Positions 2,340-52,107 of a DNA stretch of 59,891 nt are shown piece after piece. Made by a program: the position numbers and the translations under genes. This DNA is from a virus. The notes below the pieces were generated by a model. The model ran no database searches and was not told the DNA's origin. It worked only from the letters and a program-made list of their open reading frames with translations. Numbering within the stretch: position 1 is the stretch's first letter; each line of letters starts with the position of its first letter. Location: the IMG/VR virus record IMGVR_UViG_3300006111_000001, one strand, 5' to 3'.

Positions 2340-4747
2340 TTTTTGGCCTCCAATTCTTCAAGCCGGGCAGTGAGTTCACGCACCGCTTGCCACAACACCG
2401 GAATTAATTGATCCGGCCTCAAATGATGTGTGCCATCTTCGTCTTGCACATATCCGGCAAAATCTTTGCCCGTGGCGGCAAACGCATCGCGCACTTCGGT
2501 AGCCAAGAAACCCCAATGGGTCCGCTTGCCAGGACGATCCACAAATTTTTTAACTTTGACCTTTTTTGCGATCATGCGCGGGACAGGGTGCATTTTTTGC
2601 TGCAATTGTCCCGGCTCGCCTTTTTTGCCCGGCACAAATTCCATGACCGGATTGCCATCGGCATCAACCACCGGCATCAAGTCATAAACGCCAGTTTCCG
2701 TTTTAACGATCCGGTCAAACGCAACCGGCTTGCCGTCCACAATTTGAATATCGTGAACAACGCCCTCAGACACTTCGCTTTCGTGAACAAGTTGATCTTC
2801 TTCAACTTCAATTTCATCCCGTCCACCGGCAATCCACTTAAACGTCTTTGGTTCAAGGGATTTAATGATGGGCAACACATCCGAAACCGGCTCAATATCG
2901 GTTTTTAAACTTGGATCAGATGTTTGAATGGTGCCATTGACAGCCCACACCGCAGACCACCGGCCCGCCGCCGTGCCGCATGTGTAAGCATTGTCAGATA
3001 ACCCAGCCAAATGACCGCCAAACACAGCCGCATAACCACCGCCCCCGGTAAATGTGGCGCGTCCATTTAACGTCAAACCAGCCAGAACGCCCGTGCCGTC
3101 AATGTTAATATAAGCACTGGACGTTCCGCCGCTCAAAATGCCCACTTGACCAGACACGCATTGAATATAAGCCGTCCCCGGATTCATTGTGGAATCTGGA
3201 AACGCTTTACCCGCCCCATATGATCCGTTTAAATAAATGCGAGCGGAATCGGCCAAAACAATCGATGCACTGGTGCCAGGATTATATCGGTGCGCTTGGG
3301 TCAAGTCGATTGCCGCGCGATACCCGGACAGACCTTTAAACGAAATGCCCGCGTCCACCGGAAATTTTACAGTAGACCCGCCAATAACATTGGTTCCGCT
3401 GGAATCCATCAGCCAGCCAATCCACGTATTGCCGTAACCAACAGTCGTCGTGGTTCCGCTGTAGAAAGTGGATTGCGACGTGCTGGACCCGGCTCGCAGC
3501 ATGCTATGAAACCAACCGATACATGCCACGTCATAAGATGTGGTGCCAGAAAGATTGGTGTAATCAAATTCAAACGGGTTTAGATACGTGCCATCTTTGT
3601 AAGACGTGGCCCCGCCGTTCATGATTGAAACGGCAGGACACGTTGCAAACCCATAAGTCGCATCGCCGGACGTAATTGTGGGCTTGGCCAATGCCGAAAT
3701 GCCAACATTGACATTCAACGCGGCGCAATCGCCCTTATTGTCCTGATAGACATTTAATTGCATGCCAACGGCGCTTGTCCGTTGCGTCAACGGATTGCCA
3801 AAAACGGTATAATCCGTGCTGCTATTCCAGCCCGAATAGTTCCGCATAAACAAAGCAAAGGGAAAGGTTTGCGGCATGTAATAAATACCGGTTGAATACC
3901 CCCCCAGCGTGTTTAGGCCGGTGACATAATGTTCAATGGAAAAATTCTGGCGCGACCAATCCCCGTTAAAATATTTGGTATTATCGGCCAAAGCAAAATT
4001 AGTCAGGTCCGGTTGCATTGTGACCATTGAATAAAATTTGCCGCGCTTGGATTGCGAGCCATCCAACGCCAAAGACGCAACTTGCCCTTGACCATAGAAA
4101 TTTGCCGTTAATTTCGGCCAAGTCTGATATGTCGCACCACCCGTCGAGCTTCCGCCATCCGATGACGCGGTTATGGTTGTGGTATAAAGCCCAACGGGAA
4201 CATAAATGCTGCCATTTGTATTGGCGCCAATCGCCGTTGTGACCGCAACCGTATTGTCATACCCATAAGTCGAAATACCGCCATAATACGCAAGATTGCG
4301 CGGCAAATCCTGATCTTGAATGTTCCGAAATGTCGGAGACGCGGTGACACCCGTGGACGCATTCCCCGGCCCCGCCAAAAATGTTTGGCTGGACACCGAA
4401 ATAAACGACGCGCTTAAAGTGCCAAACGTGGTGACGGGCGATCCGGTAATACCAAATAAAGCCGTGGGCAAAAATAGGCCAACCGAATTGACCCCAGCCC
4501 CAGATACCGCGACCCAGCCCGCGCTTGTCGTGGTTCCCGTGGTGACACATGCATAATAAGCCCGATTGGTCACGTCATAGCAGAAATCGGGCGGTACACC
4601 CCCGGCAACACCTTGCTGCCCGGCAACATGCCCGTTTGGATTCCCGGCATAGACAAAGACATTAGGCGATTGAATATTTGAACTCATAAACCACCTATTG
4701 AACAAACCAATTGCCCGCGCCATCGCATTGCAGCGTTGCACTGGCAA
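2336..4747 (-). CDS. Tail fibre/tailspike with C-terminal intramolecular-chaperone (peptidase S74-like) domain
   Basis: 803 aa. C-terminal ~195 aa carry the hallmark pattern of the endosialidase/T5 L-shaped-fibre chaperone domain: ...TSDPSLKTDIEPV... and terminal ...HLRPDQLIPVLWQAVRELTARLEELE. N-terminal body is G/S/T-rich. Confidence 0.6.
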   Translation of the reverse strand: MPVQRCNAMARAIGLFNRWFMSSNIQSPNVFVYAGNPNGHVAGQQGVAGGVPPDFCYDVTNRAYYACVTTGTTTSAGWVAVSGAGVNSVGLFLPTALFGITGSPVTTFGTLSASFISVSSQTFLAGPGNASTGVTASPTFRNIQDQDLPRNLAYYGGISTYGYDNTVAVTTAIGANTNGSIYVPVGLYTTTITASSDGGSSTGGATYQTWPKLTANFYGQGQVASLALDGSQSKRGKFYSMVTMQPDLTNFALADNTKYFNGDWSRQNFSIEHYVTGLNTLGGYSTGIYYMPQTFPFALFMRNYSGWNSSTDYTVFGNPLTQRTSAVGMQLNVYQDNKGDCAALNVNVGISALAKPTITSGDATYGFATCPAVSIMNGGATSYKDGTYLNPFEFDYTNLSGTTSYDVACIGWFHSMLRAGSSTSQSTFYSGTTTTVGYGNTWIGWLMDSSGTNVIGGSTVKFPVDAGISFKGLSGYRAAIDLTQAHRYNPGTSASIVLADSARIYLNGSYGAGKAFPDSTMNPGTAYIQCVSGQVGILSGGTSSAYINIDGTGVLAGLTLNGRATFTGGGGYAAVFGGHLAGLSDNAYTCGTAAGRWSAVWAVNGTIQTSDPSLKTDIEPVSDVLPIIKSLEPKTFKWIAGGRDEIEVEEDQLVHESEVSEGVVHDIQIVDGKPVAFDRIVKTETGVYDLMPVVDADGNPVMEFVPGKKGEPGQLQQKMHPVPRMIAKKVKVKKFVDRPGKRTHWGFLATEVRDAFAATGKDFAGYVQDEDGTHHLRPDQLIPVLWQAVRELTARLEELEAKK

Positions 4748-5492
4748 AATTGGATCGAAGGTTAAAAGCGGACGTGGACCCTAAAATGGTGTCCCCGGAA
4801 TAAGGCGTCACAGCGATATTGTAGGTTTGAGCCGTGCCAATTTCGTCAGTAACGGTAATTTTGTTCCAGATATAAGTGGACGTGCATTGGTAAAGATTTT
4901 CGGTCTTGTTTGAAGCCGTGGCACTTTTCCAAGCAATCGTGCTTAGAGACGGAATTGCGGTATCCGTTGACCCAGATGTGATTTGGCGCCCCACATTGGC
5001 CGTTGACGTTGTGGTGGACACGGATAGTGAATTAATCTGGCTTTGAAGCTGTTGAGTGATATAGGTTAGGTAATCTAACCCGCCCTCAATCGCCTTAAAT
5101 GTCGGCCCCTGGTTGGAAATCGACACCGTTTGAACCAAAGGAACCACACGCGAAATCGTGATGTAATATCCCGCCGATAATGGCGATCCGGTTAAGGGAT
5201 AAGTGACCGTCCCGCCAATGCTTCCAACCCCTGTCAGGGTGTATTGGCTTGGCGTTAATGTGGTCAAAGTGTTGGGAGTGACATTGGTATTTAATACTGT
5301 GATGACCGCATCCCCAGCCGACACCATGGGGAAATTATAGGTGAACGAGGTTGTAACCCCATTTCCTTGCGCCGTGGTCGAACTTGACGTGGTTGAAACG
5401 GTCGAAAATACCGGGTCCGCAATCAGTCCCAGTACAACAAAGACCAGAATTTTAAACACGGCGGACAAGCGCATTTGCACCTTTTCCGCCAA
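4695..5492 (-). CDS. S/T-rich structural protein (fibre module)
   Basis: 265 aa; hydrophobic N-terminal segment then Ser/Thr-rich sequence; start may be the TTG at 5492 or the internal ATG (MRLSAVFK). Confidence 0.4.
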   Translation of the reverse strand: MAEKVQMRLSAVFKILVFVVLGLIADPVFSTVSTTSSSTTAQGNGVTTSFTYNFPMVSAGDAVITVLNTNVTPNTLTTLTPSQYTLTGVGSIGGTVTYPLTGSPLSAGYYITISRVVPLVQTVSISNQGPTFKAIEGGLDYLTYITQQLQSQINSLSVSTTTSTANVGRQITSGSTDTAIPSLSTIAWKSATASNKTENLYQCTSTYIWNKITVTDEIGTAQTYNIAVTPYSGDTILGSTSAFNLRSNFASATLQCDGAGNWFVQ

Positions 5493-5566
5493 GGGATGTT
5501 ATGGCCGACGCATCTTTGCGCTCTTGCCTAAGACTTCTTTAACCCGACGCAGCGGTTAAGGTCTAG

Positions 5567-22092: not shown

Positions 22093-22946
22093 TTTGCTCC
22101 ACTAGAGGCGGAATAACGTCTATCCGCGCGAGATTTAAGAACTGGTGCTTTCGGAGTGTTGGCAGCGACGGGACGTGCAGTCTCGACGGTTTTGCCAGCG
22201 ACCCAATTGACAAAACGGATGACTTCGGGATGATCCCCGGCCCCCGTTACGCGAAGCGCATTGCGTAATGCCGCTTCCTTTTCCGGCCCAACGATGGAGC
22301 CGTAGCGTTCAATAACCGCCCCCGCCTTGCGGATCGTCGTTTCTTGACGATTGCCACCAATGTCAGGGTCTTTGCGGAATTCATCTTTCCAGCTATCGCG
22401 CACTTTGTTCCATGTCTCTAATTGGACATTTTGAACCCGCTCCGCGCTTGCCTTTTGCTCGCTAATGAAGAAATCGACCAACTGTTGACCAAGGGCTTGC
22501 GCCGCATCATGCGGCACATTGGCCTTTACTTCGAACTCACCAAGCAACTTATTAAAATCACCAACTAACTTTTCATCCAGCTTGATGCCTTCCGGCACCG
22601 CGAATGTTTCATAAGACGGCAGAACCACGGCATCGGTCGATTCGGGCGCCTTTGCCTCATCAGACTTTGCCTCAATTTCTTTGGCTTCCGGCTCTTTGGT
22701 CCGAGCCTCGCTTAACAGCGTTTCGCCGGTATCAGCGACCTTTGGGGTTTCAGCAGCCGCGATATCCGGCGTTTGTGCAACGTCTGGCGTTGTTGTGGGT
22801 GTCGCGTTATCGGGTGCTGAAAAAGTCGCCGGTGTCGCGCTCGCATCCGGCACAGACACCGGCGCAGTTACCGCGCCCGCCCCTTGGCTTGCAGGTGCGG
22901 GGATGGTTGCCGCAATGTCTTGAATTGGATCAGGCACGCTGGTCAT
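22089..22946 (-). CDS. Putative scaffolding protein
   Basis: 285 aa; Pro/Thr/Ala-rich acidic N-terminal half and helical C-terminal half; stop overlaps the capsid-candidate start. Confidence 0.45.
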   Translation of the reverse strand: MTSVPDPIQDIAATIPAPASQGAGAVTAPVSVPDASATPATFSAPDNATPTTTPDVAQTPDIAAAETPKVADTGETLLSEARTKEPEAKEIEAKSDEAKAPESTDAVVLPSYETFAVPEGIKLDEKLVGDFNKLLGEFEVKANVPHDAAQALGQQLVDFFISEQKASAERVQNVQLETWNKVRDSWKDEFRKDPDIGGNRQETTIRKAGAVIERYGSIVGPEKEAALRNALRVTGAGDHPEVIRFVNWVAGKTVETARPVAANTPKAPVLKSRADRRYSASSGAN

Positions 22947-23298
22947 TCTCCGAAATCATTAAGGCGGCATTGGCAGGATCGACAGCGCACAAGAAACGCA
23001 ACAGGTTTAGACCAACTTCACGTTGACCCTCGTAAAACCCGTTTTCGTGTTCCCCCGTCATACTTATGCGCTTTTCCCAAATGCCCGTATCTGAAAGGAT
23101 TTGCCACAGCCATTCACGGCCATAAAGCGACCCCAAAATAGTCGCAGCGACCTCCCGCCGTTTAACTTCCCTTACTTGCGACTCTTGCTCCGCCAGCTTT
23201 ATTGCTTTTGGATCAGAGGCATCAAAGGCCGGTTTTTTGGTACGTGGACGACGCGGCAAGTTCATAGCCTTAACCACTAACCCGACGCATAAGCGCAA
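22930..23298 (-). CDS. Hypothetical protein
   Basis: 122 aa; real start may be the internal ATG near 23264 because the recurrent TGCGTCGGGTT motif lies within the annotated N-terminus. Confidence 0.35.
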   Translation of the reverse strand: MRLCVGLVVKAMNLPRRPRTKKPAFDASDPKAIKLAEQESQVREVKRREVAATILGSLYGREWLWQILSDTGIWEKRISMTGEHENGFYEGQREVGLNLLRFLCAVDPANAALMISENDQRA

Positions 23299-23428
23299 AT
23301 GTTCAAATGGGTCACAGATGGGTGCTAAATGATGTAATGATGGGTGCTGATATGGGTAAAAAGCAGTCTTGAAAATTGCTGCGTCGGGTTATCATTAATT
23401 CATAAATCAACCATCATGAGGCCAAGGC

Positions 23429-23614
23429 ATGATGTCCACTAGCGCAGAGACAAACGCCCCCGTTGCGTACCCATTGGTGCGCGTCAATTTATATATGGCT
23501 GAACACGTCATTAGGCTGATCGACAATGAAGCAATCCGCCGTGGTGTCAGCCGGTCAGAAATGATCCGGCGCGGGCTTGATCCGATGTTGGAAAAATTAC
23601 GGGGTGCCAGGTGA
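23429..23614 (+). CDS. Ribbon-helix-helix (CopG/Arc-like) DNA-binding protein
   Basis: 61 aa; ...EHVIRLIDNEAIRRGVSRSEMIRRGLDPMLEK is a typical RHH pattern; the only plus-strand gene inside the minus-strand late operon. Confidence 0.55.
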   Translation: MMSTSAETNAPVAYPLVRVNLYMAEHVIRLIDNEAIRRGVSRSEMIRRGLDPMLEKLRGAR

Positions 23615-23742
23615 CAGACATTCAATTTGCAACACTTGTTGCTCTTATCGTGGCCATTGGTCCATTGTGGCTTTTGGGTATAATCCAATGGTCAATGTCT
23701 ATTTATGACGAATATCATCGCCGCAGGGGATATTGGAAATAA
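23611..23742 (+). CDS. Small hydrophobic peptide translationally coupled to the RHH gene
   Basis: 43 codons from GTG overlapping the RHH stop (GTGA): VTDIQFATLVALIVAIGPLWLLGIIQWSMSIYDEYHRRRGYWK; one predicted transmembrane helix. Not in the ORF track (<60 aa). Confidence 0.3.
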   Translation: MTDIQFATLVALIVAIGPLWLLGIIQWSMSIYDEYHRRRGYWK

Positions 23743-24147
23743 TACCAATTGTGACACGCGCAATCAGCGATGATAATTTAATTTGACCGCTTGAGCATAA
23801 AGCAGATTAAACGCGCGATCAGACAATTCAATGCGCACCGGCTGACCATTTGATCCAACGCCGGTAATCAAATATTGCTGGCCGTCATAACTTAAATTGG
23901 CTGTTTGAGCGGGCTTATAATCATCCATGGGGCGCTTCCAACCATGAATCGGGGAAACCTTCTCTGATTTCCATTGGCACAGGCCCGCTTGACGGTATCC
24001 GCCGCACATAACCGCTTGACGTGCATTTGTATGCCTCAAAGGCACAAGACGCCAACATTTGTTCGCGGCCCGTTGAATTTAGCTTTTTGCCGTTAATCCG
24101 GATAGATCGCACATAGTCAATTAATTCATTGGGCGTCTTAACCTGAA

Positions 24148-24474
24148 TCACTTTAGCGCCTTTCTCATATCCGCAATGACCTCCGGATGGTCATTGATAA
24201 ACTGCAATAGAAACGGGGATATTGCCCGAATAACCCGTTCCTCCTCTTTCATTGGCAATCCAACCATAGACGTGCGGAATATCGTGTGAAGTAATTCATG
24301 CAAGAATGTTTCAGCTCGCACTTGCTGTTCTAAATCTTGGTCAATCCTGATTGTGGATTTGTGATCCAGAAACACGCCTTGGGTGTCATCGTAAAAATCA
24401 TATAGCTCTACTTTGATTTTTCGATACCCAACGCGGATTTCTGTTGGAAGTTTCATGCCGCCCACCGTACCCAA
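24148..24474 (-). CDS. Small protein with HExxH motif (possible mini-zincin)
   Basis: 108 aa; ...ETFLHELLHTIF... motif. Confidence 0.4.
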   Translation of the reverse strand: MGTVGGMKLPTEIRVGYRKIKVELYDFYDDTQGVFLDHKSTIRIDQDLEQQVRAETFLHELLHTIFRTSMVGLPMKEEERVIRAISPFLLQFINDHPEVIADMRKALK

Positions 24475-25820
24475 TCAGATTGATTAACCGTCACTTGATC
24501 TTCGAGATAGACCGGCACTTGGAATGTCACCCCGCGCTTAGGATGGGTCCACCAAAGAGCTTGAATAGGCGACTGATACCGCGCGCGCAGGAATAGCCGC
24601 GCATATTCGTCATAACCTTTCAACGTTCCGTTTACGATCACGCCGGGCAGCGGCAAGTATTGATGCCAATGCCCCATAATGACGGTATCGAAATCCCGGC
24701 CAATTTGAGATTCGGAACCGTGCAGCTTCACGGTCCCGCGCAGGATCGGCCCTAATGCGCCAATGATTCCATCGCCGCCCTTAACCCCCAGCGCATCACC
24801 ATGGGTTAAAAGATACCGATGCCCCGCCACGCAATAATGGGCATCCGTTTCCCCAGGAATATAAAACCGTACCCGGTCATCGCCCGCAAACCGCTGTTCA
24901 AGCCACGTATAAAGCAGCCATTCATAAGACGTGTGAACCCGTTGCTTTGACCTTGGCTTTTTGCCCATACGCCCATGATTGCCCACGACGCAAGGCACAA
25001 ACACTTTGCCAAACCGCTCTGCCATGGTTTCAATGGCGCGAATCAATTGACCCATTAGCCAAACTAAAGTTGGCGCCGTCCGCATTTCATTGGTCTGGGT
25101 CAATTCATCGTGCAGGTCATCCCCGGAAATCATATCCCCGCCCAAATTGACTACAATACCGGGATATTCAGGGGATGATAAGTGATGGATGCACAAATCA
25201 ACAATGCGCTCGACCAGCGATTTTATGCGCCGTTCGGCAATTTCAAGATTGAATTCATTGACCCCCGCCACTTCAATCCGGTCAACCCGCTCGCCCACAT
25301 GCCAATCTGACCACATCGTACTAGGTACGCCAGGCGCCCCCGCCACACTGGTTGAATTAACAACCCAATCAGGAATAATGATCGGCAACCGGGACAGGTT
25401 GAATATTTCTTCCCTGATCCGTTCAGCGGATAGGCTTTCCCGGTGCGCCTCGGTCAATTGCTTTGTTAAAACATCAATCCGGTCTTTGAACTTGATCCGC
25501 TCGCGTTCGGCAAGTGGCGTTTGATCAAGCGCAATGCTAACCGGCTCTCCCGATATTTGTTCAAATGTGCCATCCGATTTTAACCGGAATCGCGGCTTTT
25601 CATTGGCAGCTTTCGGTATCTCTGACGCAACCAGACCTCGTTTAAACCCGGCATTACACCGCGTTTCGAATGTCCCGCGCGGGATTCCCTTGTCTCCCGT
25701 GGGCTGCATTTGCTTATCAAGAACCGACGCAAATTGCGACGCCATCAAATGCGTTTTATGCCGGGCATATAAATCCACAGCTTCTTGCAATGCCCATTGT
25801 GGAATTTTATGCCCGGCCAT
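24453..25820 (-). CDS. Calcineurin-like metallophosphoesterase
   Basis: 455 aa; ordered motifs GGDMISGDD, GNHG, THGD, GHWH typical of the metallophosphatase fold; N-terminal ~200 aa extension. Confidence 0.7.
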   Translation of the reverse strand: MAGHKIPQWALQEAVDLYARHKTHLMASQFASVLDKQMQPTGDKGIPRGTFETRCNAGFKRGLVASEIPKAANEKPRFRLKSDGTFEQISGEPVSIALDQTPLAERERIKFKDRIDVLTKQLTEAHRESLSAERIREEIFNLSRLPIIIPDWVVNSTSVAGAPGVPSTMWSDWHVGERVDRIEVAGVNEFNLEIAERRIKSLVERIVDLCIHHLSSPEYPGIVVNLGGDMISGDDLHDELTQTNEMRTAPTLVWLMGQLIRAIETMAERFGKVFVPCVVGNHGRMGKKPRSKQRVHTSYEWLLYTWLEQRFAGDDRVRFYIPGETDAHYCVAGHRYLLTHGDALGVKGGDGIIGALGPILRGTVKLHGSESQIGRDFDTVIMGHWHQYLPLPGVIVNGTLKGYDEYARLFLRARYQSPIQALWWTHPKRGVTFQVPVYLEDQVTVNQSDWVRWAA

Positions 25821-25827
25821 GGTTCAC

Positions 25828-27513
25828 CTATGCCGCAACTTGAACTTTAACCGTCTCAGGCGGCAAATACCTTGCTCGCTCCTCATCGGTTAAGGTTGCA
25901 GGGTTTTTGCACGTGACTTCCAACGTCCCCAAATGAACCACTTGGAATGTCAAATCAACATCGCACCAGATTTGATACCCAGCTTTGCGAACCTTGCGAC
26001 AGAAATTCAAATCTTCCGAAAAATACAAAAATTCTTTGCCGTCATGGCCCAAAGTGTAATTCTCGTTGATCCACTCCGCTAATGGCGTGCCATCCAAACT
26101 GTCCAAAACCTCTTGCGGCGGCACGTCCGTAAAATAATCTTTCAGCAAAGATTTGAACCCATCCAGCCGGGTTTCACCTTGCCAATGATAGGTTTCAAAA
26201 TATGACGGCCATTGCGTCTTGCGGTACACATCACATTTGACCAGCAACAACCCGCCAGGCAGCAACAAAGCTTCCTGTAACCCGCCTTCCATAACCGATT
26301 GCGGGTTTTTAAAGGTCCCCAATGTTTCATAGGGCGGCACGCGCTTATTATAAGTCGCGCCCACAATGTCTTTCTTGTGGTTCAACAACCGAATAAGCGT
26401 ATCCGGTGGAAACTTCATATCTGAATCCACCCACAGGATAAAATCGCATCCTGTATCCAAAGCTTTTTGAACCGTGGAGTTGCGGGAATGCGTAATCATC
26501 GAAGATTGAACATTGATAATGGCGGTATCAATCCCGGCCCGTGCCGAATAAGTCAGCAGCCCCGCCACATCAACCGCCGTTCCCGCTTCCCATGTCCGGC
26601 CAGATGGAATAGCAATACCCACCCGCAACGGACGCGGGATGGATTTTTTAATCTCAGCAATGTGCTTTTCAGCCGCCGCTTTGATTTGCAAATACTTGTC
26701 AGATGGCGCGTGATCCATCTTGGCCGACACTTGCTTGATCAATTCCGGATTGCGCAGGTGCTTAATCTTTTCATAGCAAAAGGCTTGGGCTTGCGGCAAA
26801 CGTTCAAGCATGGCCCGGAACGCAGCCGTTTCTTTGCCGCCAAACGCCACTTCACCCAGAATAAACGCGTCTCGGCACCGAACAGGATGCGTTGCCTCAA
26901 AATAGCCAAGCCAAAATTCAAACTCAACCAAACCGTGAGTAAGCCCCTTGCCTTCGGGCATTAACACATCAAGATCAACCTCGATCAATTGGCCAAACAC
27001 CGTGGCGATTTCATCCCACCACGTATCGCCAAACCAATTTGGAAACCCATTGGGCATGAAATACCCAAGTGTCTCATAGACCTTGCGAGGAATGACCGGC
27101 AGAGACGGAAACCCCTGATGCCCCGCATCCCGCAGGTGCATGACCCCAATCCCATTGACCAGTCCCTTGGCCGCATTAAAAATGCGATTGGGCCATTTGG
27201 CATCATCATCCAAAGTATAGTCATCGGCAAAAGCCATCAGATACTTACCTTGAGATTTTTCAGCCAAAGCATTGTAAACCGCTGCCAATGTCCCATGTCG
27301 CTCACCCAGCACGACGGACAATTGCCGACCGGGGATTTCAAGCGTGCCAAGCAATTCAACCGCTTCGGTATAAGTTGAATCGTCGTCGTCTAGTGCAATA
27401 AGCACTTCGACATTTGGCGGGATTTTGCGGTTAATCATCAAAGATGATACGGCGCGCAAAAGATTGCCGGGACGACCCCGCGACGGGATCAGGACAGAAA
27501 TTTCAATGGTCAT
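25828..27513 (-). CDS. Two-domain glycosyltransferase (GT-A fold, GT2-like N-domain plus second DxD domain)
   Basis: 561 aa; N-terminus ISVLIPSRGRP...ALDDDDS (GT2-like); second domain with WVDSDMKF (DxD) and C-terminal FSEDLNFCRKVRKAGYQIWCD. Confidence 0.65.
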   Translation of the reverse strand: MTIEISVLIPSRGRPGNLLRAVSSLMINRKIPPNVEVLIALDDDDSTYTEAVELLGTLEIPGRQLSVVLGERHGTLAAVYNALAEKSQGKYLMAFADDYTLDDDAKWPNRIFNAAKGLVNGIGVMHLRDAGHQGFPSLPVIPRKVYETLGYFMPNGFPNWFGDTWWDEIATVFGQLIEVDLDVLMPEGKGLTHGLVEFEFWLGYFEATHPVRCRDAFILGEVAFGGKETAAFRAMLERLPQAQAFCYEKIKHLRNPELIKQVSAKMDHAPSDKYLQIKAAAEKHIAEIKKSIPRPLRVGIAIPSGRTWEAGTAVDVAGLLTYSARAGIDTAIINVQSSMITHSRNSTVQKALDTGCDFILWVDSDMKFPPDTLIRLLNHKKDIVGATYNKRVPPYETLGTFKNPQSVMEGGLQEALLLPGGLLLVKCDVYRKTQWPSYFETYHWQGETRLDGFKSLLKDYFTDVPPQEVLDSLDGTPLAEWINENYTLGHDGKEFLYFSEDLNFCRKVRKAGYQIWCDVDLTFQVVHLGTLEVTCKNPATLTDEERARYLPPETVKVQVAA

Positions 27514-28776: not shown

Positions 28777-28938
28777 CTAACCCCCGCTCAATTTGGCAAA
28801 AATAACGCGCCAATGATTGGGCATCGGATCAGAACCAACCACCGCCCATCCGGCAGCACCATGCGCGTTTAATCGTTGAGCCAATTCTTCCGGTGTCATC
28901 CGTGGGAAATCGACCACGTTATACTCGTATGTGTTCAT
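28777..28938 (-). CDS. Small protein translationally coupled to portal
   Basis: 53 aa (MNTYEYNVVDFPRMTPEELAQRLNAHGAAGWAVVGSDPMPNHWRVIFAKLSGG); its ATG overlaps the portal TGA (ATGA). Not in ORF track. Confidence 0.3.
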   Translation of the reverse strand: MNTYEYNVVDFPRMTPEELAQRLNAHGAAGWAVVGSDPMPNHWRVIFAKLSGG

Positions 28939-30800
28939 TGACTGCCCCCGTTCCCAATGCCGTGCAGCATGGCTTGAACCGCGTTTTGCCCCCCGCCCAC
29001 GTCAATATCCGATAGTGTTTTGGCCCCTTGAACCGCCGCCAGGCTGGCTTGCCCTTGTTGCTGCGCTTGCATCTGCGCCGCGCGTTGCTGACGCAATGCC
29101 GCAACCTTCTCAGGCGAATTAAGGATATGTTTGGGAATAAATAAATCATCCGCGTATTCGCGCATCCAGGCATCCCGATCCCAAATATCAGCGATGGACG
29201 GATCACCCGCTTGCATGTTCCCAGCCGTACCAGCAAACCGCTCAAGCGCGGACGTGGACGAGGCTTTTTGCGCCAAGGCCAACATGCCCACAAACTCAAT
29301 TCCGATATTCACGCCCTGTAACGATTTGGGCAGCGGCGGCAGCAAACCCTTGCGTTGCATAATCGCAAACACCCGCTTAACCGCAGGTGCTAGGGCTTCA
29401 TTCTGTAACCGCTCAATCACCGGACCCAGCACTTGCAGCTTTTCTTGTTGCCGTTGTGCAACTTCATAAGCGGTCATGTTCTTGTTCGATGCCGTTTCCA
29501 GCATCATGAACAGGTCATTAAAGAACCCCTCTTTGATCCGCTGTTGAATTGCGGCCAAGTCTTGCATCATGTGATCAATGTTGGGCTGAACCGTATAAAT
29601 CGGTCGCATGCCCTTGCCATTGTCCAATTGATTCACATAAGTCACTTTGCCGGGCAGGATCGAGGAAGGCTCATTCTTCAAATCCATCGAAGCAAGCATT
29701 GGCGGACGCACCATTTTTTCAATGGCTTCCGCTTTGCGCATTGTCTCGACTTGCAACTGCATAATGTCCGGGAGCACGTCCATGCCCACCGAACGCCCAT
29801 AAGCATCATTGGACGTTGTGGCCCAGCGTGGAGCGTAATGCGGTTGGTCTAAGAAGCCCCGCATGGATAGGGGATAAGCCCCACCGGCACCCCAGACCCA
29901 ATAGACCTCGCGCCAGACAAAATCCCCATCCACGACGCCGACATTGCCGGAGCCATTAGGCGTCTTAATGGGAAAATTTGGCTCAATCGCATGCGCCACG
30001 GTCCGTTCGACTTCAAGCGAACCGCCCTTTTCCATCCACAGCTTTTGAATGTCAGACGGGCAATTCTCAATCCCAAACATTTCCACAATCGCGGAAACGG
30101 TCATAACAAATTGGCGATAAAGAGATTCAACCCGATTGGCCGATGACGAAGCCAAGAAATACTCACCGCAGCATGGCGTATAAGCACGGATCACATCTTC
30201 ATCATCCTCGTAAAGAATGACCGGACCCGTCCCAAAGGTCACCAAATCTTCAAACATTTGGGCGCCAGCGTCATAGAAGTTCGACCGGCCCATGACCTCG
30301 TAAACGCGGTTCTCGCATTCTTCAAACCAATCAACTGCGTCATCATCCATATCTGAACGATCAAGCAGCCCAGGCTTTAATTTGAACCACGGGCGAGATG
30401 GAGACATTAAACCGCTCATCATACCAGCCGCACACTTACGCATGGCCAGCGTGCCCGTAGGATCGACAATCGCGTCATTAATAGGCGAGCCGCGCACCAT
30501 GCTATTGGGTGTCGGCATTGCATTGTTAATAAAAATGCCCCGGCGCGGCAGGATATAGGTTTCAAGGATCGACCAATGCGACGCCCAGCTTTGCCGCCAG
30601 GATCGAAGCATGGCCAGCCGTGTCTCTAAATGCCCGCGCAGGATCAGCCAGTCATTGCCTTGCGTTACTTCGCGCACCGAAGCTTTGGCCGGTGTCATGG
30701 CTAATGCTTTTGGCCCGGCGCTTTCATACGCGACCTCGCGCGCCTTACGGCCCGGCTTGGAGCGTGTATCCGGACGGTCTGTAACCGCAGCGTCACTCAT
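28935..30800 (-). CDS. Portal protein
   Basis: 621 aa; position immediately after terminase; size and composition consistent with podovirus portal/connector proteins. Confidence 0.55.
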   Translation of the reverse strand: MSDAAVTDRPDTRSKPGRKAREVAYESAGPKALAMTPAKASVREVTQGNDWLILRGHLETRLAMLRSWRQSWASHWSILETYILPRRGIFINNAMPTPNSMVRGSPINDAIVDPTGTLAMRKCAAGMMSGLMSPSRPWFKLKPGLLDRSDMDDDAVDWFEECENRVYEVMGRSNFYDAGAQMFEDLVTFGTGPVILYEDDEDVIRAYTPCCGEYFLASSSANRVESLYRQFVMTVSAIVEMFGIENCPSDIQKLWMEKGGSLEVERTVAHAIEPNFPIKTPNGSGNVGVVDGDFVWREVYWVWGAGGAYPLSMRGFLDQPHYAPRWATTSNDAYGRSVGMDVLPDIMQLQVETMRKAEAIEKMVRPPMLASMDLKNEPSSILPGKVTYVNQLDNGKGMRPIYTVQPNIDHMMQDLAAIQQRIKEGFFNDLFMMLETASNKNMTAYEVAQRQQEKLQVLGPVIERLQNEALAPAVKRVFAIMQRKGLLPPLPKSLQGVNIGIEFVGMLALAQKASSTSALERFAGTAGNMQAGDPSIADIWDRDAWMREYADDLFIPKHILNSPEKVAALRQQRAAQMQAQQQGQASLAAVQGAKTLSDIDVGGGQNAVQAMLHGIGNGGSQ

Positions 30801-31157
30801 CCGAGCAGCGATGCCTTGGCCGTTGTCGCCGGTGTCGTTAAGCCACCAGCCCCGCCATCATTCTTGACAGTCCCGCTAAATCCCGCACCCGCCGCAGCAG
30901 CAGCTTTGCCCTTTTGTGAATTGCCAGCCTGATCGACATTTGCATTGGCCATAATTGGCGGCGCCGCAGCCGGTGGCACAGCAGGAATAACAGGAGCTTG
31001 AGGTGTCGGAGGTGACGAAAATAACGCGCCCAAAGGTCAATCCTCACGGTTAAGTGAGGCAAAATCTAAACCCGACGCATGGTCATTTGTGTTCTATGGG
31101 TGCGAATTGCACCCTATATGCCCCACGATTGGGGGCGGCAAAGCGGATATTTGGGTG

Positions 31158-31952
31158 CTATCGCTTGCCCCATGCAGAGGCGAGAGGATTGTAATCAACT
31201 TCATGTTTGTTTGGTCGCAACCCAGCGCGCACGCGGTAATCGTCAACCGGACGAAATGCGGCAATGTCAATCCCGCTCATAATCCCATACCGCATGCAGT
31301 CCATTAAATGGTCATTTTCTTTGACCACTTGCCCCTTATCGTCCCGGCGATAAATGCGATACTCGCTTAACGTATTTTGCAGCGTTTTAAATATTTTAAG
31401 CCGCCCCGTCGATAATCGCATCCAGGTCCGATATATGCCCGCTTCCCTCGCATTATTGGCCGTAATCAGCGTTAATCCTAATTGTTGATATTCCCATAAC
31501 AATTGCTCGCCATCCTTTTGTGCTCGACCGCGTGACGCCGGATCAATAACCCCCGGTATCCACTCTCCGCGCGCCTTAATGGCTTGAGCGTGAGTCGATG
31601 GTTCAGCCTGCCCGCGATAATGTTCAGAATAAGCGTAAACCACGTCCGATTCGGTATCATGCGCAAACCACAATCCCGCCGTTCTATTCCATCCCACGTC
31701 CATGGCGTAAAAATGTTTCCAATGAGCGGGTATTTCGAACGGATCACAGGTCACGTCATCTTCCGGCACCGGATAAATGGCGCCCGATCCAAGGGCCGGA
31801 ATGCCTTTGGTGCGCGCGTCCCGTTCATGCGGAGCATAAGACTTAATCATTTCCGCTTGCGCTTCCGCTGATATGTGCGGAACGTCTGCCCAGGAAACGA
31901 ATGTAATGTATTTCGCCATTTCCGTTAGCCGTTTTGCAAAGCAACGGCCCAA
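31158..31952 (-). CDS. terL: Terminase large subunit, C-terminal nuclease portion
   Basis: 264 aa; RNase-H-like terminase nuclease pattern (…HFYAMDVGWNRTAG…, …ENDHLMDCMRYG…). Probable true start is MAKYITF at ~31919, 5 nt after the HNH stop. Confidence 0.7.
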   Translation of the reverse strand: MGRCFAKRLTEMAKYITFVSWADVPHISAEAQAEMIKSYAPHERDARTKGIPALGSGAIYPVPEDDVTCDPFEIPAHWKHFYAMDVGWNRTAGLWFAHDTESDVVYAYSEHYRGQAEPSTHAQAIKARGEWIPGVIDPASRGRAQKDGEQLLWEYQQLGLTLITANNAREAGIYRTWMRLSTGRLKIFKTLQNTLSEYRIYRRDDKGQVVKENDHLMDCMRYGIMSGIDIAAFRPVDDYRVRAGLRPNKHEVDYNPLASAWGKR

Positions 31953-32449
31953 CGCTTGCCGCGAACAATGCGCCCAATTTGCGTTTGTTTTACCCCAAAC
32001 ATTTCACCTAATTGTCGTTGATAAAATTTGCCGCTTTTCCAAAGGCTTAATATCTTACGCACATCATCGACAGACAAGACGGCGTTATGATGCCGCTCAC
32101 CCATCAAACTTGTCCCATGCTTTCGCTTGTCCAAATGATTTGACGACCGAGTATCCCATCTTAGATTTGAATAATGGTTATTCGATGGATCGCCGTCGAT
32201 ATGGCAAATTTCCGCCCCGTCAAACGGCTTTAACCCTATAAAAGCATACGCAACCAATTGATGAGCTTTTTTGTGGATCGACTTACCATCCTTACGCAAA
32301 ATCACCATTGGATAGCCGTCAGATCGAATCCACATCTTCAATATTTTGCCAATGCGCGCGCCGGGAGCAGCCGTAACGCGACGAACAGCGCCCCATTCAC
32401 TAACTTCATAATCCTCAAAACCAGGCACAATCCGCCATTCAGCAATCAT
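31925..32449 (-). CDS. HNH homing endonuclease inserted within terL
   Basis: 174 aa; N-terminal NUMOD4-like (YEVSEWGAVRR) and HNH core (HQLVAYAFIG…ICHIDGDPSNNHYSNLRWDTRSSNH). Start overlaps the TerL-ATPase stop (ATGA). Confidence 0.8.
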   Translation of the reverse strand: MIAEWRIVPGFEDYEVSEWGAVRRVTAAPGARIGKILKMWIRSDGYPMVILRKDGKSIHKKAHQLVAYAFIGLKPFDGAEICHIDGDPSNNHYSNLRWDTRSSNHLDKRKHGTSLMGERHHNAVLSVDDVRKILSLWKSGKFYQRQLGEMFGVKQTQIGRIVRGKRWAVALQNG

Positions 32450-33219
32450 GACTTAACCTCCCCTTCCAAACGCGCACCACCCGGCATGAATGAAAGAACC
32501 ACAGCCGAAAGGCCGCGCAGCGGCGTGAACCCGCATATCACCAACCCGGACGGTTGACCGGGCACGGTCGAAAGCGTTCGAGTTAAGCCTTCCGAGTAAA
32601 TGTCCAATGGCGGTTCTTCATCAAATTGCATAATGTCGATTTTGGCCGCTTGGAACGATTCACGCCCCTGATCATAGGATTTAAACAGCATCCGCGACAC
32701 GCCGCCCGATAAATGCTTGACCGTCACGCTATCCACAGCATCCGGCACGCCCGGCCTTGGTGTCGCCTTGATGATATTGTCAGCCGGTATTAAACCCGTG
32801 CCATGGTCCCCGGTTGGCCCCAAATACGTCACTTGCAAGGATTCGCGGACGGCCTTGGTATCTTCGCCCGCCGCCCACATGGTCACAGGGCGATCAAACT
32901 TGCGCCCAACCCACCAATGGGGATACCAACCAGTTAAATGAAGGGCGCACTCATACGAACACCCAAACGTCTTTCCCGATCGGTTGCCGCCGACCAAAGC
33001 CCGCTCTTGATACGTGGCCCCAGCCGCAAAATGGGCCAAATGCTTAGGGTATAATTCGCGCCGCAATGGCCCGGTATCAGGATAAGCCCGGTAAAGCAGC
33101 GTCTTGCGGTAAATGTCATGCTCTAATTCGATAATGGCCTTAAGGCGCGCATAATCATCCACCGGCAGCGCTGCCAATTGTTCTGGCGTCAGCGCCGCAA
33201 CTTCATCGAACAAAGCCAC
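32446..33219 (-). CDS. terL: Terminase large subunit, N-terminal ATPase portion
   Basis: 257 aa; Walker A (GGNRSGKT), Walker B-like (IDIMQFDEEPP); ends where the HNH ORF begins. Confidence 0.75.
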   Translation of the reverse strand: MALFDEVAALTPEQLAALPVDDYARLKAIIELEHDIYRKTLLYRAYPDTGPLRRELYPKHLAHFAAGATYQERALVGGNRSGKTFGCSYECALHLTGWYPHWWVGRKFDRPVTMWAAGEDTKAVRESLQVTYLGPTGDHGTGLIPADNIIKATPRPGVPDAVDSVTVKHLSGGVSRMLFKSYDQGRESFQAAKIDIMQFDEEPPLDIYSEGLTRTLSTVPGQPSGLVICGFTPLRGLSAVVLSFMPGGARLEGEVKS

Positions 33220-34261: not shown

Positions 34262-34488
34262 ATTCCAAAAAACTCGCGGGATACAAACGCATCCATACCG
34301 TTTGGCCCCAGAATGTCGCTGCCCGTAACGGGTTCAACAGGCTTTGACGCCAATCCCGCCATTTCCAATATCGCATCCACAAATTCTTCCGCCAGTATAT
34401 CAGACGGAGCAGCGGGTAATTCAACCACTCGTCCGTTATACGAGATGGTCACCGGCCCAATTTGCGGCATGTATTCCGGTTTGCTCAT
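34252..34488 (-). CDS. Hypothetical protein
   Basis: 78 aa ORF. Confidence 0.3.
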   Translation of the reverse strand: MSKPEYMPQIGPVTISYNGRVVELPAAPSDILAEEFVDAILEMAGLASKPVEPVTGSDILGPNGMDAFVSREFFGMWR

Positions 34489-34802
34489 TGGCCATCCATC
34501 AAATTAATGGCGGAAATAATCGTGCCAGTTAAAAAGCACAACCATCCAACGGCATAGAACATCAACGCTATCATGGTCCGCCTCGCGCTTTTAATTTCCA
34601 TCAATGACCGCAATTTCCAAGCCCAAACGCTCTCTTGAAAATTGATTTCAAAAAACAATCCAAGCATGCCCCCAAAAACAAATGGCACCCAAATCCGCCA
34701 GCCAGGCACATAACCGTTGACCACAGCCAGTATCGCGGGCGCAAAAAGCAAAAATTGCGCAAATCCAAATACTTTTAAAGCCGTTTGCCGTTTCATGGTC
34801 AT
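34485..34802 (-). CDS. Small membrane protein
   Basis: 105 aa with 3 hydrophobic helices. Confidence 0.4.
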   Translation of the reverse strand: MTMKRQTALKVFGFAQFLLFAPAILAVVNGYVPGWRIWVPFVFGGMLGLFFEINFQESVWAWKLRSLMEIKSARRTMIALMFYAVGWLCFLTGTIISAINLMDGQ

Positions 34803-34845
34803 GTATTTTCACCCGACGCAGCCAGCACCGACAAGCAAAAAACCA

Positions 34846-35406
34846 TTACCCAAACCTCCGCCCGACAAATTCCGCATGCCGCTTAAATGACCGCTCCCGC
34901 TTCTTATCCAAAGGAAAATAAGCAATGGCAGCGTGATCCGCGCAATATGGCTTATTCGATAACTTTGCGTCTTGGCAGTAACGCCAAACATTATCTTGCG
35001 GCCCCGGATTGCCATAGACCCAGCAGCACCCGCACGGTTCTTTAACACCCTCACCGGCCACAACATCACCCCACGCCGGATCAATCGGCAGTGATTTAGA
35101 TACCAAGCGCGGCTTCATTGGTTCAGTGACCAGCCTGGGCATCCGCAGCCCTTTAAACCCCATCACGCGCTTTGCATGTGCCTTGGCCTTTGGCTTTTGT
35201 TCGACCGGCTCCTGATCCGCCCCCTTGGCATTTGACAGCTTAAGCCCCAACCGCCGCAATTGCCCCATAACTGCATTGCGCGTGATATGCCATCCAGCCG
35301 CCTCCGAAGCAATTAAAGCAATCTGGCTGGACGATGCCCCAGGAGTTTTTTCCCAAGCCTCTCGAATGTATTTGCGCGAGTCCGAAATCTGAATGGCGTT
35401 TCTCAT
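34846..35406 (-). CDS. GcrA-like cell-cycle regulator homolog
   Basis: 186 aa; N-terminal …SSSQIALIASEAAGWHITRNAVMGQLRRLGLKL matches the GcrA N-terminal DNA-binding pattern; C-terminal …CGCCWVYGNPGPQDNVWRYCQDAKLSNKPYCADHAAIAY matches the GcrA C-terminal Cys/His pattern. Confidence 0.7.
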   Translation of the reverse strand: MRNAIQISDSRKYIREAWEKTPGASSSQIALIASEAAGWHITRNAVMGQLRRLGLKLSNAKGADQEPVEQKPKAKAHAKRVMGFKGLRMPRLVTEPMKPRLVSKSLPIDPAWGDVVAGEGVKEPCGCCWVYGNPGPQDNVWRYCQDAKLSNKPYCADHAAIAYFPLDKKRERSFKRHAEFVGRRFG

Positions 35407-40654: not shown

Positions 40655-41082
40655 GCCGCCACCGCATCCAATTCAAATGCTTCGATGGTTACTTTGACCT
40701 TGGGCTTATCCGCCCAATGCCGCCGCACGGTCAGCCAAATGATTTGCTTGTCATCTTGGTACACAACGCCGTTAAGAGCATCGCAAACCGCCTTGGCGAC
40801 ATTATCCAGATCGACCCGATGAATCGGTGCAAACGTCCCTTTTAAAGCCGCATTGCGTTGACGTGCTGGCCAAGATTTAGGAGGCACGACAAACACATTG
40901 ATGGTCGCCGCTATGGCATTGCCAACCGGATCATCTTTGAACACGGCGCGCGCCGCCCATTGAACGGCTTGCTCATATTCAACCGTCTTGGCGGGAGTAT
41001 AAACATGACCCTGTTTGGTCATGCGCGGACGCTGTTTGCCGACCGGCTCCCCGCCAATTTCAAATGTCGCCAAGTGACGCAT
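40651..41082 (-). CDS. rusA: RusA-family Holliday junction resolvase
   Basis: 143 aa; …EIGGEPVGKQRPRMTKQGHVYTP… and overall RusA pattern. Confidence 0.8.
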   Translation of the reverse strand: MRHLATFEIGGEPVGKQRPRMTKQGHVYTPAKTVEYEQAVQWAARAVFKDDPVGNAIAATINVFVVPPKSWPARQRNAALKGTFAPIHRVDLDNVAKAVCDALNGVVYQDDKQIIWLTVRRHWADKPKVKVTIEAFELDAVAA

Positions 41083-41450
41083 CAGGCCGCAACACGCTTT
41101 AATGCGGCTTCACCCAACGGAGTGGTGGCAAGCATGCCCAAAGCGTTCAAATACAATTCCAGCTTTGCTTCTTCTTCATCGCGCTGCGCTTTGTCTTTTT
41201 TGCGAAGCGCAATGACCTTGCGGATGATTTTGGTTTCAAACCCGTGAGCAGCCGCCTCCGCGTACACATCCTTAATGTCCCCAGCCAGCTCTGCCTTCTC
41301 GGTTTCAAGGCGCTCAATCCGCTCCACTATTGACTGCAATTGTCCGTTTGAAATTGTCATTCTCAATCTCCAAAAAGGCCAGGGCCAAAGCCCCGGCAAG
41401 TTGAGGGAGGTACGCCCGTGTGGGCCTGTTGAGCAGGTAAAAACCCGCAA
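41082..41450 (-). CDS. gapR: GapR-like (DUF2312) nucleoid-associated protein
   Basis: 122 aa; …QLQSIVERIERLETEKAELAGDIKDVYAEAAAHGFETKIIRKVIALRKKDKAQRDEEEAKLELYLNALGM closely follows the Caulobacter GapR/DUF2312 sequence. Confidence 0.8.
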   Translation of the reverse strand: MRVFTCSTGPHGRTSLNLPGLWPWPFWRLRMTISNGQLQSIVERIERLETEKAELAGDIKDVYAEAAAHGFETKIIRKVIALRKKDKAQRDEEEAKLELYLNALGMLATTPLGEAALKRVAA

Positions 41451-42125: not shown

Positions 42126-42374
42126 CTAGCCAGCATTACGCACCTCATCATTTTGAGATTGCGGCAATGGCACCAAAAAAATGTCTGGCCTTAATTCGCA
42201 CCGGGAAATACCGGTTGCCCTTTCAATGGCCAACGCATTTTCGGCTGAAATCTTGGTTGAACGATTAACCCATGCCCAAATGGACGGCTGTTTGACCCCA
42301 ATGGCGCGGGCCAAGGCGTTTTGTCCACCGGCAATCTCTAATGCGCGTTGCAGCGCGGTTATAGGCGTGTTCAT
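42126..42374 (-). CDS. Cro-like HTH regulator
   Basis: Divergent from the CI-like gene. Track ORF begins at TTG 42410; the ATG at 42374 (MNTPITALQRALEIAGGQNALARAIGVKQPSIWAWVNRS…) is the more likely start. Confidence 0.55.
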   Translation of the reverse strand: MNTPITALQRALEIAGGQNALARAIGVKQPSIWAWVNRSTKISAENALAIERATGISRCELRPDIFLVPLPQSQNDEVRNAG

Positions 42375-42457
42375 AGGTTTGTCTATATAGGCAAACCAAA
42401 GCCGCGTCAATAGTGGATGCTATTGGAAAAATGAGTTTTTTTAATTAATGTGCGGAC
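42375..42457. promoter_or_regulatory. Divergent cI/cro-like switch region with operator-like palindromes
   Basis: Near-perfect palindrome GGTTTGtcTATATAggCAAACC (42375..42398) abutting the cro-like ATG; inverted repeat CAATAG-N6-CTATTG (42408..42425); candidate -35/-10 hexamers on both strands. Confidence 0.45.
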
Positions 42458-43120
42458 ATGGAAACTTTAGGTAAACGAGTGCGCGCCCGTCGCGCTGATT
42501 TAAAATTGTCTCAAGCGGAACTTGCCAGCCGCGTGGGCATATCTCAGCCGTCTTTATCAGCCATTGAAAATGACGAGACTCAAGGCACCACCAAAATATT
42601 AAAGCTGGCAGAAGTATTGGAATGTGACCCCAATTGGCTTTTGATGGGCAATAAACTAAAGTTTAGCGTCCCCAACAAACTTACAACTTATAAAAATAAT
42701 CCTGTTGCAAACGAATCAGTTTTTACTACCATCAATATGGGCAAAAGAGACTTACCTATTAGAGGTCTGGCTCAAGGGGGTGATGGGGTGCTAACATTTG
42801 ACCAAGACGCAATAGATTATACTTTTCGTCCATCTAATTTAGTCGGCATAGATGAAGCGTTTGCGCTTTATGTTACCGGCGACTCCATGGGCGAAGTCTT
42901 GATCCCAGGCACTTTGTTATTGGTTCACCCCAAACAAGAACCAAAAATTATGGATTTTGTCGTTATTGAAAAAATTGACCGATCCGTAATCGTTAAACGA
43001 TTGGTTCGCAGATCGGCCAATAGCGTCACCTTGCGCGAATACGACCCGCCCAATGATTTTGTGCTTTCTCGCAGCGAAATTCGAATGATGTTGCGGGTTT
43101 GCGGGACGGCCATGGAATGA
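42458..43120 (+). CDS. CI-like repressor (HTH_XRE plus S24 LexA-like peptidase domain)
   Basis: 220 aa; N-terminal …LKLSQAELASRVGISQPSLSAIENDET… HTH; C-terminal …FALYVTGDSMGEVLIPGTLLLVHP…VIVKRL… with Ser and Lys catalytic-dyad context. Confidence 0.8.
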   Translation: METLGKRVRARRADLKLSQAELASRVGISQPSLSAIENDETQGTTKILKLAEVLECDPNWLLMGNKLKFSVPNKLTTYKNNPVANESVFTTINMGKRDLPIRGLAQGGDGVLTFDQDAIDYTFRPSNLVGIDEAFALYVTGDSMGEVLIPGTLLLVHPKQEPKIMDFVVIEKIDRSVIVKRLVRRSANSVTLREYDPPNDFVLSRSEIRMMLRVCGTAME

Positions 43121-51983: not shown

Positions 51984-52107
51984 CGCGAACAATATCGGTT
52001 TAGGCTGACACAGAATCGGACACATCATTTGTCAGGGGTGTTCTGGTTTTGCCCCATATATTATTCATTATTGGGTTTATTGAACATTATATGGGTCATC
52101 CCGGCTC

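Follow-up and report, generated by a model that had tools for sequence, protein, structure and literature searches.

The locus described here raises a simple question: does a small DNA-binding protein encoded against the late genes of a phage, with a short hydrophobic reading frame overlapping its stop codon, belong to a toxin-antitoxin (TA) pair, or is it a regulator followed by an accessory gene? The window (the whole stretch of DNA analysed) is the 59,891-base virus record IMGVR_UViG_3300006111_000001, and the unit in question occupies positions 23,429 to 23,742 of its plus strand. A first-pass annotation had likened this unit to both antitoxin-membrane-toxin and regulator-effector pairs. 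Comparison with related phages points to the second: the first gene, coding for a ribbon-helix-helix (RHH) protein, recurs at a fixed position, and the gene directly behind it differs from phage to phage.

The RHH gene and its overlap with a 43-codon reading frame

The unit comprises the following features:

23405-23428, plus strand: 5' leader of the RHH gene, with a GAGG/AAGG Shine-Dalgarno sequence
23429-23614, plus strand: gene for an RHH (Arc/CopG-like) predicted DNA-binding protein of 61 amino acids (aa), Pfam RHH_1
23611-23742, plus strand: 43-codon open reading frame (ORF) with a GTG start, coding for a putative single-pass membrane peptide; an orphan

The first-pass annotation proved right about the basic architecture. 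The 61-aa protein matched the Pfam profile RHH_1 (PF01402) over residues 18-48 with 28.4 bits (E 1.5e-6), above the gathering cut-off of 20.5. The domain spans about residues 15-57 according to profile and structural matches, leaving 4-6 residues on the C-terminal side and no extension. The predicted overlap with a hydrophobic 43-codon ORF was also found, at 23611-23614: the RHH stop codon TGA (23612-23614) overlaps GTG (23611-23613), the first start codon of the ORF, whose product has one strong predicted transmembrane helix. The motif copy that had been noticed ahead of the RHH gene is an exact match to TGCGTCGGGTT, 38 nucleotides (nt) upstream of the ATG. The leader additionally contains CAACCATCAT, a near-copy in inverted orientation of the ATGATGGGTG repeat.

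The unit had further been described as the only plus-strand one within some 34 kb of minus-strand late genes. The essential part of this claim holds, while the dimensions needed correction: the minus-strand block (457-42410) is about 42 kb in all, with a structural part of roughly 33 kb. Other plus-strand ORFs of at least 90 aa in this block have negative codon-usage scores and overlap better minus-strand ORFs, so that the RHH unit is the only credible plus-strand unit there. Its place is between the portal-side unit and the Bbp19-scaffold-capsid unit, in a low-GC island with 42-45% GC over 23200-24450 vs 51% genome-wide.

The RHH protein has few recognizable relatives. The nearest solved structure was the CopG-family entry 7by2 (E 0.04), and the best Foldseek matches of the monomer model were RHH proteins, all with E of at least 0.35 and not significant. 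A sequence search of a large protein collection returned four clusters only, a metagenome scan with the RHH query confirmed nothing, and no match was present in 50,697 phage records.

Conserved RHH genes and changing cargo in related phages

About 120 related loci, numbered with the prefix L, were recovered by capsid-based searches. The only diverged near-copy of the RHH gene was found in L011, a 507-bp ENA contig (ERZ19025922). Here all 24 of the 24 nt before the RHH ATG are identical to those of the phage, and the coding region is about 81-85% identical. The two genes differ at 35 of 186 bases, with 25 synonymous vs 4 non-synonymous codon changes; all four amino-acid changes fall in the N-terminal tail (residues 3-10), residues 11-61 are identical, and the protein identity is 93%. 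Judged against this one diverged homologue, the RHH gene is under strong purifying selection. In L011, the RHH stop codon and the start codon of the next ORF overlap as ATGA. This next ORF, at least 98 aa long, is unrelated to the 43-aa peptide: the two frames agree over their first four codons (MTD-I/L), after which no similarity is left.

In every relative with a capsid identity of at least 74%, the same slot contained an ORF that belongs to the RHH family or resembles it and is transcribed divergently from the Bbp19-like gene. The assignment relies on BLASTP in L019 (E 4e-8) and in L052, L017, and L062 (E 7e-5), and on a Pfam RHH_1 match of 24.2 bits, above the cut-off, in L115. The evidence is weak in L061, and the small ORF of L015 is RHH-like by sequence pattern and position only, with no confirmation from Pfam or BLASTP. 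In relatives with 50-73% capsid identity, RHH is absent and the glycosyltransferase gene abuts Bbp19; likewise, the portal, Bbp19-like, scaffold, and capsid genes of the cultured phage phiV10 are contiguous, without an RHH unit. Six loci with 46-49% capsid identity (L119, L120, L122, L123, L125, and L126) contain a tandem double RHH, a single minus-strand ORF of about 110-130 aa at about 4.7-5.3 kb in the locus. It occupies the same slot, ahead of the scaffold and capsid genes and divergent from them.

In the closer relatives, the slot measures 1-4.4 kb and its gene content differs. The following cargo was found after the RHH genes:

L019: TylF-type methyltransferase (sugar methyltransferase, E 3e-102), then a lipoprotein
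L015: HNH-like nuclease (under the Pfam cut-off), then a lipoprotein
L052: 57-aa ORF, then sulfotransferase-like, GT8-like, GT61, and methyltransferase genes
L115 (about 80% capsid identity), 2310-4726: five tRNA genes (Gly, Cys, Gln, Ser, and Thr) and a SocA/Panacea-domain gene (PF13274, E 9e-23)
L119: family-2 glycosyltransferase, directly after the tandem double RHH
L011, L061, and L122: unknown ORFs

The cargo of L061 was considered GIY-YIG-like by eye; it had no Pfam match and this assignment was dropped. The junction after the RHH gene has the form NTGA in the phage (GTGA), L011 (ATGA), L015 (ATGA), L019 (TTGA), and L052 (ATGA). In these comparisons, RHH is the conserved component, and the next gene is an interchangeable cargo in a recombination-prone slot between two convergent or divergent structural units. 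Two traits of accessory cassettes are present: at one fixed place, related phages differ in whether the unit occurs and in what it contains, and the base composition is atypical (low GC).

The divergent control region

The RHH and Bbp19-like genes are separated by a 163-bp divergent region with a perfect 12-nt inverted repeat, TAACCCGACGCA/TGCGTCGGGTTA, whose arms are 90 nt apart and contain the TGCGTCGGGTT box. Exact copies of this box number four in the genome. With one mismatch allowed, eight matches were obtained vs 1.5 expected, and none of 100 shuffles reached eight. The copies and the candidate operator are located as follows:

23380-23390, plus strand: exact box of the RHH unit
23279-23289, minus strand: exact box of the Bbp19-like/capsid unit, 13 nt upstream of the ATG at 23265; inverted partner of the 23380 box
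31069-31079, minus strand: exact box of the portal unit, 35 nt before a 78-aa ORF and the portal unit
5541-5551, minus strand: exact box of the tail fibre/tailspike gene (4695-5492), 48-66 nt before the gene
34810-34820, minus strand: one-mismatch copy before a membrane ORF just after the GcrA-like gene
58287-58297, minus strand: one-mismatch copy before a 75-aa ORF
12906 and 14310: one-mismatch copies, intragenic
23307-23357, plus strand: candidate RHH operator, with ATGGGT at 23307, 23318, 23340, and 23352 (spacing 11/22/12) and a degenerate ATGATG at 23329

In the portal, capsid, tail-fibre, and RHH units, the box precedes the first start codon by 7-48 nt. TGCGTCGGGTT looks like a phage-specific promoter element and may be a late-promoter element. 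Neither a sigma-70 consensus site nor the canonical -35/-10 geometry was found, and no sigma factor was found. ECF-type (GAAC-N-CGTC), sigma-54, CtrA-box, and GANTC readings were compared by eye and none fits all four copies. The box is not conserved in the control regions of relatives.

The ATGGGT repeats occur one per helical turn (about 11 bp) between the two divergent boxes, and within the candidate operator GATGGGTGCT recurs at a distance of 22 nt. No other 6-mer cluster of this kind was present in the genome, a coding tandem repeat excepted; any such cluster appeared in 1.5% of Markov-1 random genomes, and none was phased. Operators to which RHH dimers bind cooperatively (those of Arc, Mnt, CopG, and omega) typically show repeats arranged in this way. 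At the equivalent place, L015 contains two copies of an 8-mer of its own, TAGCTATA, with an 11-nt spacing. The reverse complement of the repeat, ACCCAT, is found 17 nt upstream of the 23279 box and 16 nt upstream of the 31069 box, and therefore the portal-unit promoter may also respond to RHH.

The 43-codon reading frame and its predicted peptide

The predicted product of the ORF is MTDIQFATLVALIVAIGPLWLLGIIQWSMSIYDEYHRRRGYWK. It combines an N-terminus that is short and acidic with a hydrophobic stretch of 22-24 residues, an aromatic belt, and a basic RRR/K tail (HRRRGYWK), a textbook architecture for a single-pass peptide. In the predicted structure, one helix covers residues 3-38, with the hydrophobic core at about residues 5-28; the positive-inside rule predicts an N-out/C-in orientation. 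The Kyte-Doolittle 19-residue mean peaks at 2.46; among the 371 ORFs in the window that are 40-80 aa long, only 3 attain this value. When the region was shuffled, 6.7% of the sequences stayed open for 43 codons, and the hydrophobicity of the peptide was reached in 0.2% of the open ones.

Scored by phage codon usage, the frame of the ORF ranks first among the six, with +0.014 bits per codon vs -0.28 or lower for the rest, and exceeds 97% of non-coding-frame windows. Genes of this phage are usually coupled by four-base start/stop overlaps, one with a GTG start among them, and the GC skew stays positive up to about 23800. The frame, hydrophobicity, and coupling argue for translation of the ORF, which on these sequence features is more likely than not. 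The peptide is plausible as an orphan cargo and would most likely be an interchangeable passenger. Since the cargo of sister phages is envelope-related and the phage is temperate, an envelope-directed accessory role is the best guess, and by analogy this could be superinfection exclusion or inhibition of a membrane enzyme.

A proposed regulator with exchangeable cargo and the alternatives

The explanation we favour, with about as much belief as doubt, is a two-gene operon of an RHH regulator and a swappable cargo gene in an accessory slot of a temperate podophage. The RHH protein would be a minimal Arc/CopG-type transcription factor, conserved and syntenic in a phage sub-clade. Its dimers most likely bind the ATGGGT repeats of the control region (four to five) along a single helix face; once bound, they would set the level of their own transcript and probably also that of the divergent Bbp19-scaffold-capsid promoter. 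The second gene would be whatever cargo sits directly after the RHH stop codon, here a 43-residue single-pass inner-membrane peptide, presumably made by termination-reinitiation at GTGA. This peptide would probably act on the cell envelope, e.g., in superinfection exclusion or membrane-enzyme inhibition, and no toxin would be neutralised by RHH.

A more ambitious version, which we regard as speculative and improbable, treats the RHH gene and the overlap junction as a fixed docking head. Cargo would recombine after codon 3-4, inheriting RHH-controlled transcription and coupled translation, and the peptide would be a new membrane effector co-regulated with the structural operons via TGCGTCGGGTT, perhaps with a GcrA-like factor as a helper, in a clade of uncultured alphaproteobacterial epsilon15/BPP-1-like phages.

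Several observations weigh against the regulator-cargo operon. The single-sequence AlphaFold model of the RHH monomer, made with no alignment, has helices at 10-38 and 42-60 and no strand, although a monomer cannot show the intertwined strand of the dimer. Among relatives, an obvious repeat operator is present in L015 only. The RHH unit has the same box as the structural operons and may thus be lytic-late and not expressed in lysogens, a poor fit to a lysogenic-conversion moron. No intrinsic terminator, structured RNA, or Rfam family was detected after the operon, leaving the unit unbounded. The 43-codon ORF has only a weak GGGG ribosome-binding site in addition to its GTG start, its codon score is under 97% of true coding windows, and gene finders did not call it on any of 10 contigs. 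All 12 of 12 contigs of the phage are 100% identical over 23200-24000, so that they carry no population signal and dN/dS for the peptide is impossible. A word-index search of 5.8 billion proteins gave no homologues of the peptide, and exhaustive phmmer against 1.84 billion representative proteins gave a single match, a spurious repeat protein. Conservation of the small ORF in related genomes, which the first-pass annotation had named beforehand as a test, thus failed: no credible homologue was present anywhere searched, including 50,697 phage records (tblastn, E of at least 1 only), all ORFs of the related loci (phmmer, the phage itself only), and Pfam, PHROG, and NCBIfam (no match). A lack of homologues is no proof that the peptide is untranslated.

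These peptide results bear on a simpler alternative, in which RHH is monocistronic and 23611-23742 is an untranslated 3' region or a remnant of cargo turnover, with the ORF a chance or decayed one. We consider it somewhat unlikely. The absence of homologues, the missed gene calls, the GTG start, and a GC content of 41% would be consistent with it, as would a codon score well under the phage mean of 0.29 +/- 0.13. Fragments are expected in a slot that undergoes gene replacement, and because A, G, or T precedes 75% of TGA stops, an NTGA overlap is by itself cheap. On the other side stand the rarity of such an open and hydrophobic frame among shuffles, the best codon score of six frames, the single-pass architecture, and the positive GC skew; moreover, real genes after RHH in relatives use the same overlap junction.

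According to another alternative, which we judge unlikely, the unit is a late lytic module: TGCGTCGGGTT would be a late promoter element possibly served by a GcrA-like protein, RHH would feed back on promoters with ACCCAT at a -35-like position, and the peptide would be holin- or antiholin-like, acting in lysis timing or membrane remodelling. If the box is a late promoter, the RHH-peptide operon would be expressed with the structural genes and would not be a lysogen-expressed moron. Each of the portal, capsid, tail-fibre, and RHH units is headed by an exact box, two of the four with ACCCAT upstream, and a near-copy directly follows the gene for the GcrA-like protein. Of the ORFs scanned elsewhere, none was recognized as a lysis gene. 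However, the role of the box is putative, no canonical promoter geometry or sigma factor was found, and the peptide, being absent from all relatives, cannot be an essential lysis component. A better holin candidate is the multi-pass ORF at 34485-34802 on the minus strand, and the glycan-modifying cargo of relatives suggests accessory functions rather than lysis. Our search of the literature on RHH-led morons and on GcrA in phage late transcription found nothing directly relevant.

Of the two comparisons made by the first-pass annotation, a regulator with a co-transcribed effector is plausible, and the antitoxin-toxin relation is unsupported. In the latter, a type II-like TA or abortive-infection pair, RHH would repress the operon and neutralise a membrane-depolarising 43-aa toxin. 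The order of the genes (RHH first, a 4-nt overlap, and a small second gene) is that of type II TA operons, and the fold family is that of RHH antitoxins of the VapB, BrnA, ParD, and RelB classes. RHH also has a sub-threshold likeness to the NCBIfam antitoxin models of VapB (24.3 bits) and BrnA (21.6 bits), VapB26 and the CopG-family entry 7by2 are among the PDB matches at E of at least 0.04, and small hydrophobic peptides can be toxic. Unlike in type II systems, however, the partner is a membrane peptide unrelated to any toxin family; to our knowledge, it is antisense RNA (type I) or an RNase (type V) that keeps the known membrane-peptide toxins in check, and in no case an RHH protein. A dedicated TA relation is disfavoured, and in our judgement highly improbable, since a conserved RHH is followed by an interchangeable gene (the near-identical protein of L011, with its identical folded domain, by an unrelated ORF, distant homologues by enzymes or tRNAs, and the partners in L011, L019, L052, L115, L119, and L015 all differ, with no co-inherited cognate toxin), in agreement with the minimal size of the 61-aa RHH protein without a toxin-binding extension beyond its DNA-binding domain, scores far under the antitoxin family cut-offs of 60 bits, and no PADLOC defence-system match for RHH or the peptide.

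Comparison with known systems

The immI region of Salmonella phage P22 encodes Arc and Mnt, minimal RHH repressors in the late region of a temperate podophage that control the antirepressor gene ant. The unit described here is similar in having a minimal RHH gene in the late/structural region, a compact divergent control region, and candidate operator sub-sites about one helical turn apart. Unlike immI, with its two RHH genes and ant, it has one RHH gene, no ant-like gene, and variable cargo, and the RHH protein has no significant similarity to Arc, which was not among the PDB matches at E up to 1.

The unit resembles CopG/RHH_1 repressors (PF01402) in passing the family threshold, in the size of about 50-60 aa with the domain only, in being the first gene of an operon, and in having repeats upstream. 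It differs in that the nearest solved structure is at E 0.04 only and that DNA binding and autoregulation are candidate properties.

Phage morons and lysogenic-conversion cassettes include the 31-aa inhibitor of O-antigen polymerase, Iap, of Pseudomonas phage D3 and small superinfection-exclusion membrane proteins. The favoured operon is likewise a low-GC accessory unit between structural genes of a temperate phage, its presence and content are swapped among relatives, related cassettes contain sugar methyltransferase, glycosyltransferase, sulfotransferase-like, and lipoprotein genes, and its product here is a small single-pass peptide. In contrast to morons, no flanking terminator was found and the promoter region has the box of structural operons. 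Classical morons are usually described without a dedicated regulator, whereas this cassette is led by a conserved RHH gene. Iap and Sie proteins have no sequence relation to the phage peptide.

Genome, lifestyle, and host of the phage

The window has an exact 120-bp terminal direct repeat (1-120 and 59772-59891) and therefore represents a complete phage genome (about 59.8 kb) with either circular closure or terminal redundancy. Many contigs from freshwater metagenomes carry the same genome with 100% identity. The phage, whose host is an uncultured freshwater bacterium, is temperate and has a lambdoid layout; it also encodes RecE-like, Sak4-like, and SSB genes. The minus-strand block 457-42410 contains replication genes and those for terminase, portal, glycosyltransferase, the Bbp19-like protein, scaffold, capsid, and tail. 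The main features besides the RHH unit are:

42458-43120, plus strand: CI-like repressor with HTH and S24 peptidase domains
42126-42410, minus strand: Cro-like gene
50323-51375, plus strand: tyrosine integrase
41082-41450, minus strand: GapR-like DNA-binding protein (PF10073, E 3e-30)
34846-35406, minus strand: GcrA-like sigma-70 cofactor (PF07750, E 2e-11; NCBIfam E 5e-13, far under the equivalog cut-off)
28935-30800, minus strand: portal
25828-27513, minus strand: two-domain glycosyltransferase
23764-23928, minus strand: convergent 54-aa gene that ends the portal-side late unit; only 21 nt separate its stop codon from that of the 43-codon ORF
22930-23265, minus strand: Bbp19-like gene at the head of the scaffold/capsid operon, ATG at 23265

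The major capsid protein is of the epsilon15/BPP-1 type (PF20911, E 1.5e-121), and the phage is a temperate epsilon15/BPP-1-like podophage. Its closest genomic relatives are in Stellaceae and Bradyrhizobium metagenome-assembled genomes, and together with the GcrA-like and GapR-like genes they indicate an alphaproteobacterial host, which is thus the probable one on genomic grounds. The GcrA-like gene lies directly upstream of the packaging and structural genes, the place expected of a late activator.

Between the glycosyltransferase gene and the RHH unit, 23764-25820 on the minus strand codes for a 455-aa phrog_284 'exonuclease'-like protein, a 102-aa M78/IrrE-like peptidase fragment, and the 54-aa ORF. 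By tblastn in the relatives, these three genes were found only in the phage's own lineage. The low-GC island is common to the RHH unit and the 102-aa and 54-aa genes. As no terminator was detected between the RHH operon and the 54-aa gene convergent to it, transcription in one direction would be likely to interfere with that in the other.

Some other genome features were recorded. The large terminase is encoded in two minus-strand ORFs, 32446-33219 (N-terminal part) and 31158-31952 (C-terminal part), separated by an HNH endonuclease ORF at 31925-32449 (phrog_59, E 6e-42); this layout looks like an intein or homing-endonuclease insertion. A perfect 15-nt tandem repeat of about 11 copies (44325-44492, plus strand), encoding a five-residue protein repeat, lies in the early-region ORF 44180-44740, which matches PHROGs of unknown function. 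The serine DNA invertase gene at 53405-54031 on the minus strand (phrog_125, E 3e-57) is a few kb from the tail-fibre end on the circular map, and its product could be responsible for inverting a host-range segment. The small ORFs 49596-49796, 52029-52187, and 44893-45174 on the plus strand and 34485-34802 on the minus strand contain very hydrophobic stretches (Kyte-Doolittle mean over 19 residues of at least 2.0) and may code for unannotated membrane proteins.

Significance

The unit combines an Arc/CopG-like phage regulator with an accessory cassette, both known classes, and is thus ordinary in kind. The practical value is modest and consists of RHH with the phased ATGGGT repeats, as a regulator/operator pair that can be tested, and a candidate phage-specific promoter box. 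The peptide would be one more orphan small membrane protein missed by standard gene callers. If the favoured explanation is true, it would correct a tempting mis-annotation, as an RHH gene with a small overlapping ORF would not by itself indicate a TA pair. It would also document that one clade of temperate podophages, all uncultured, has an accessory slot that runs against the structural genes and is headed by a conserved RHH regulator. The contents of this slot, namely sugar methyltransferases, glycosyltransferases, lipoproteins, nucleases, tRNAs, and the 43-aa peptide, would point to envelope modification or exclusion, by which these phages may alter the surface of their hosts.

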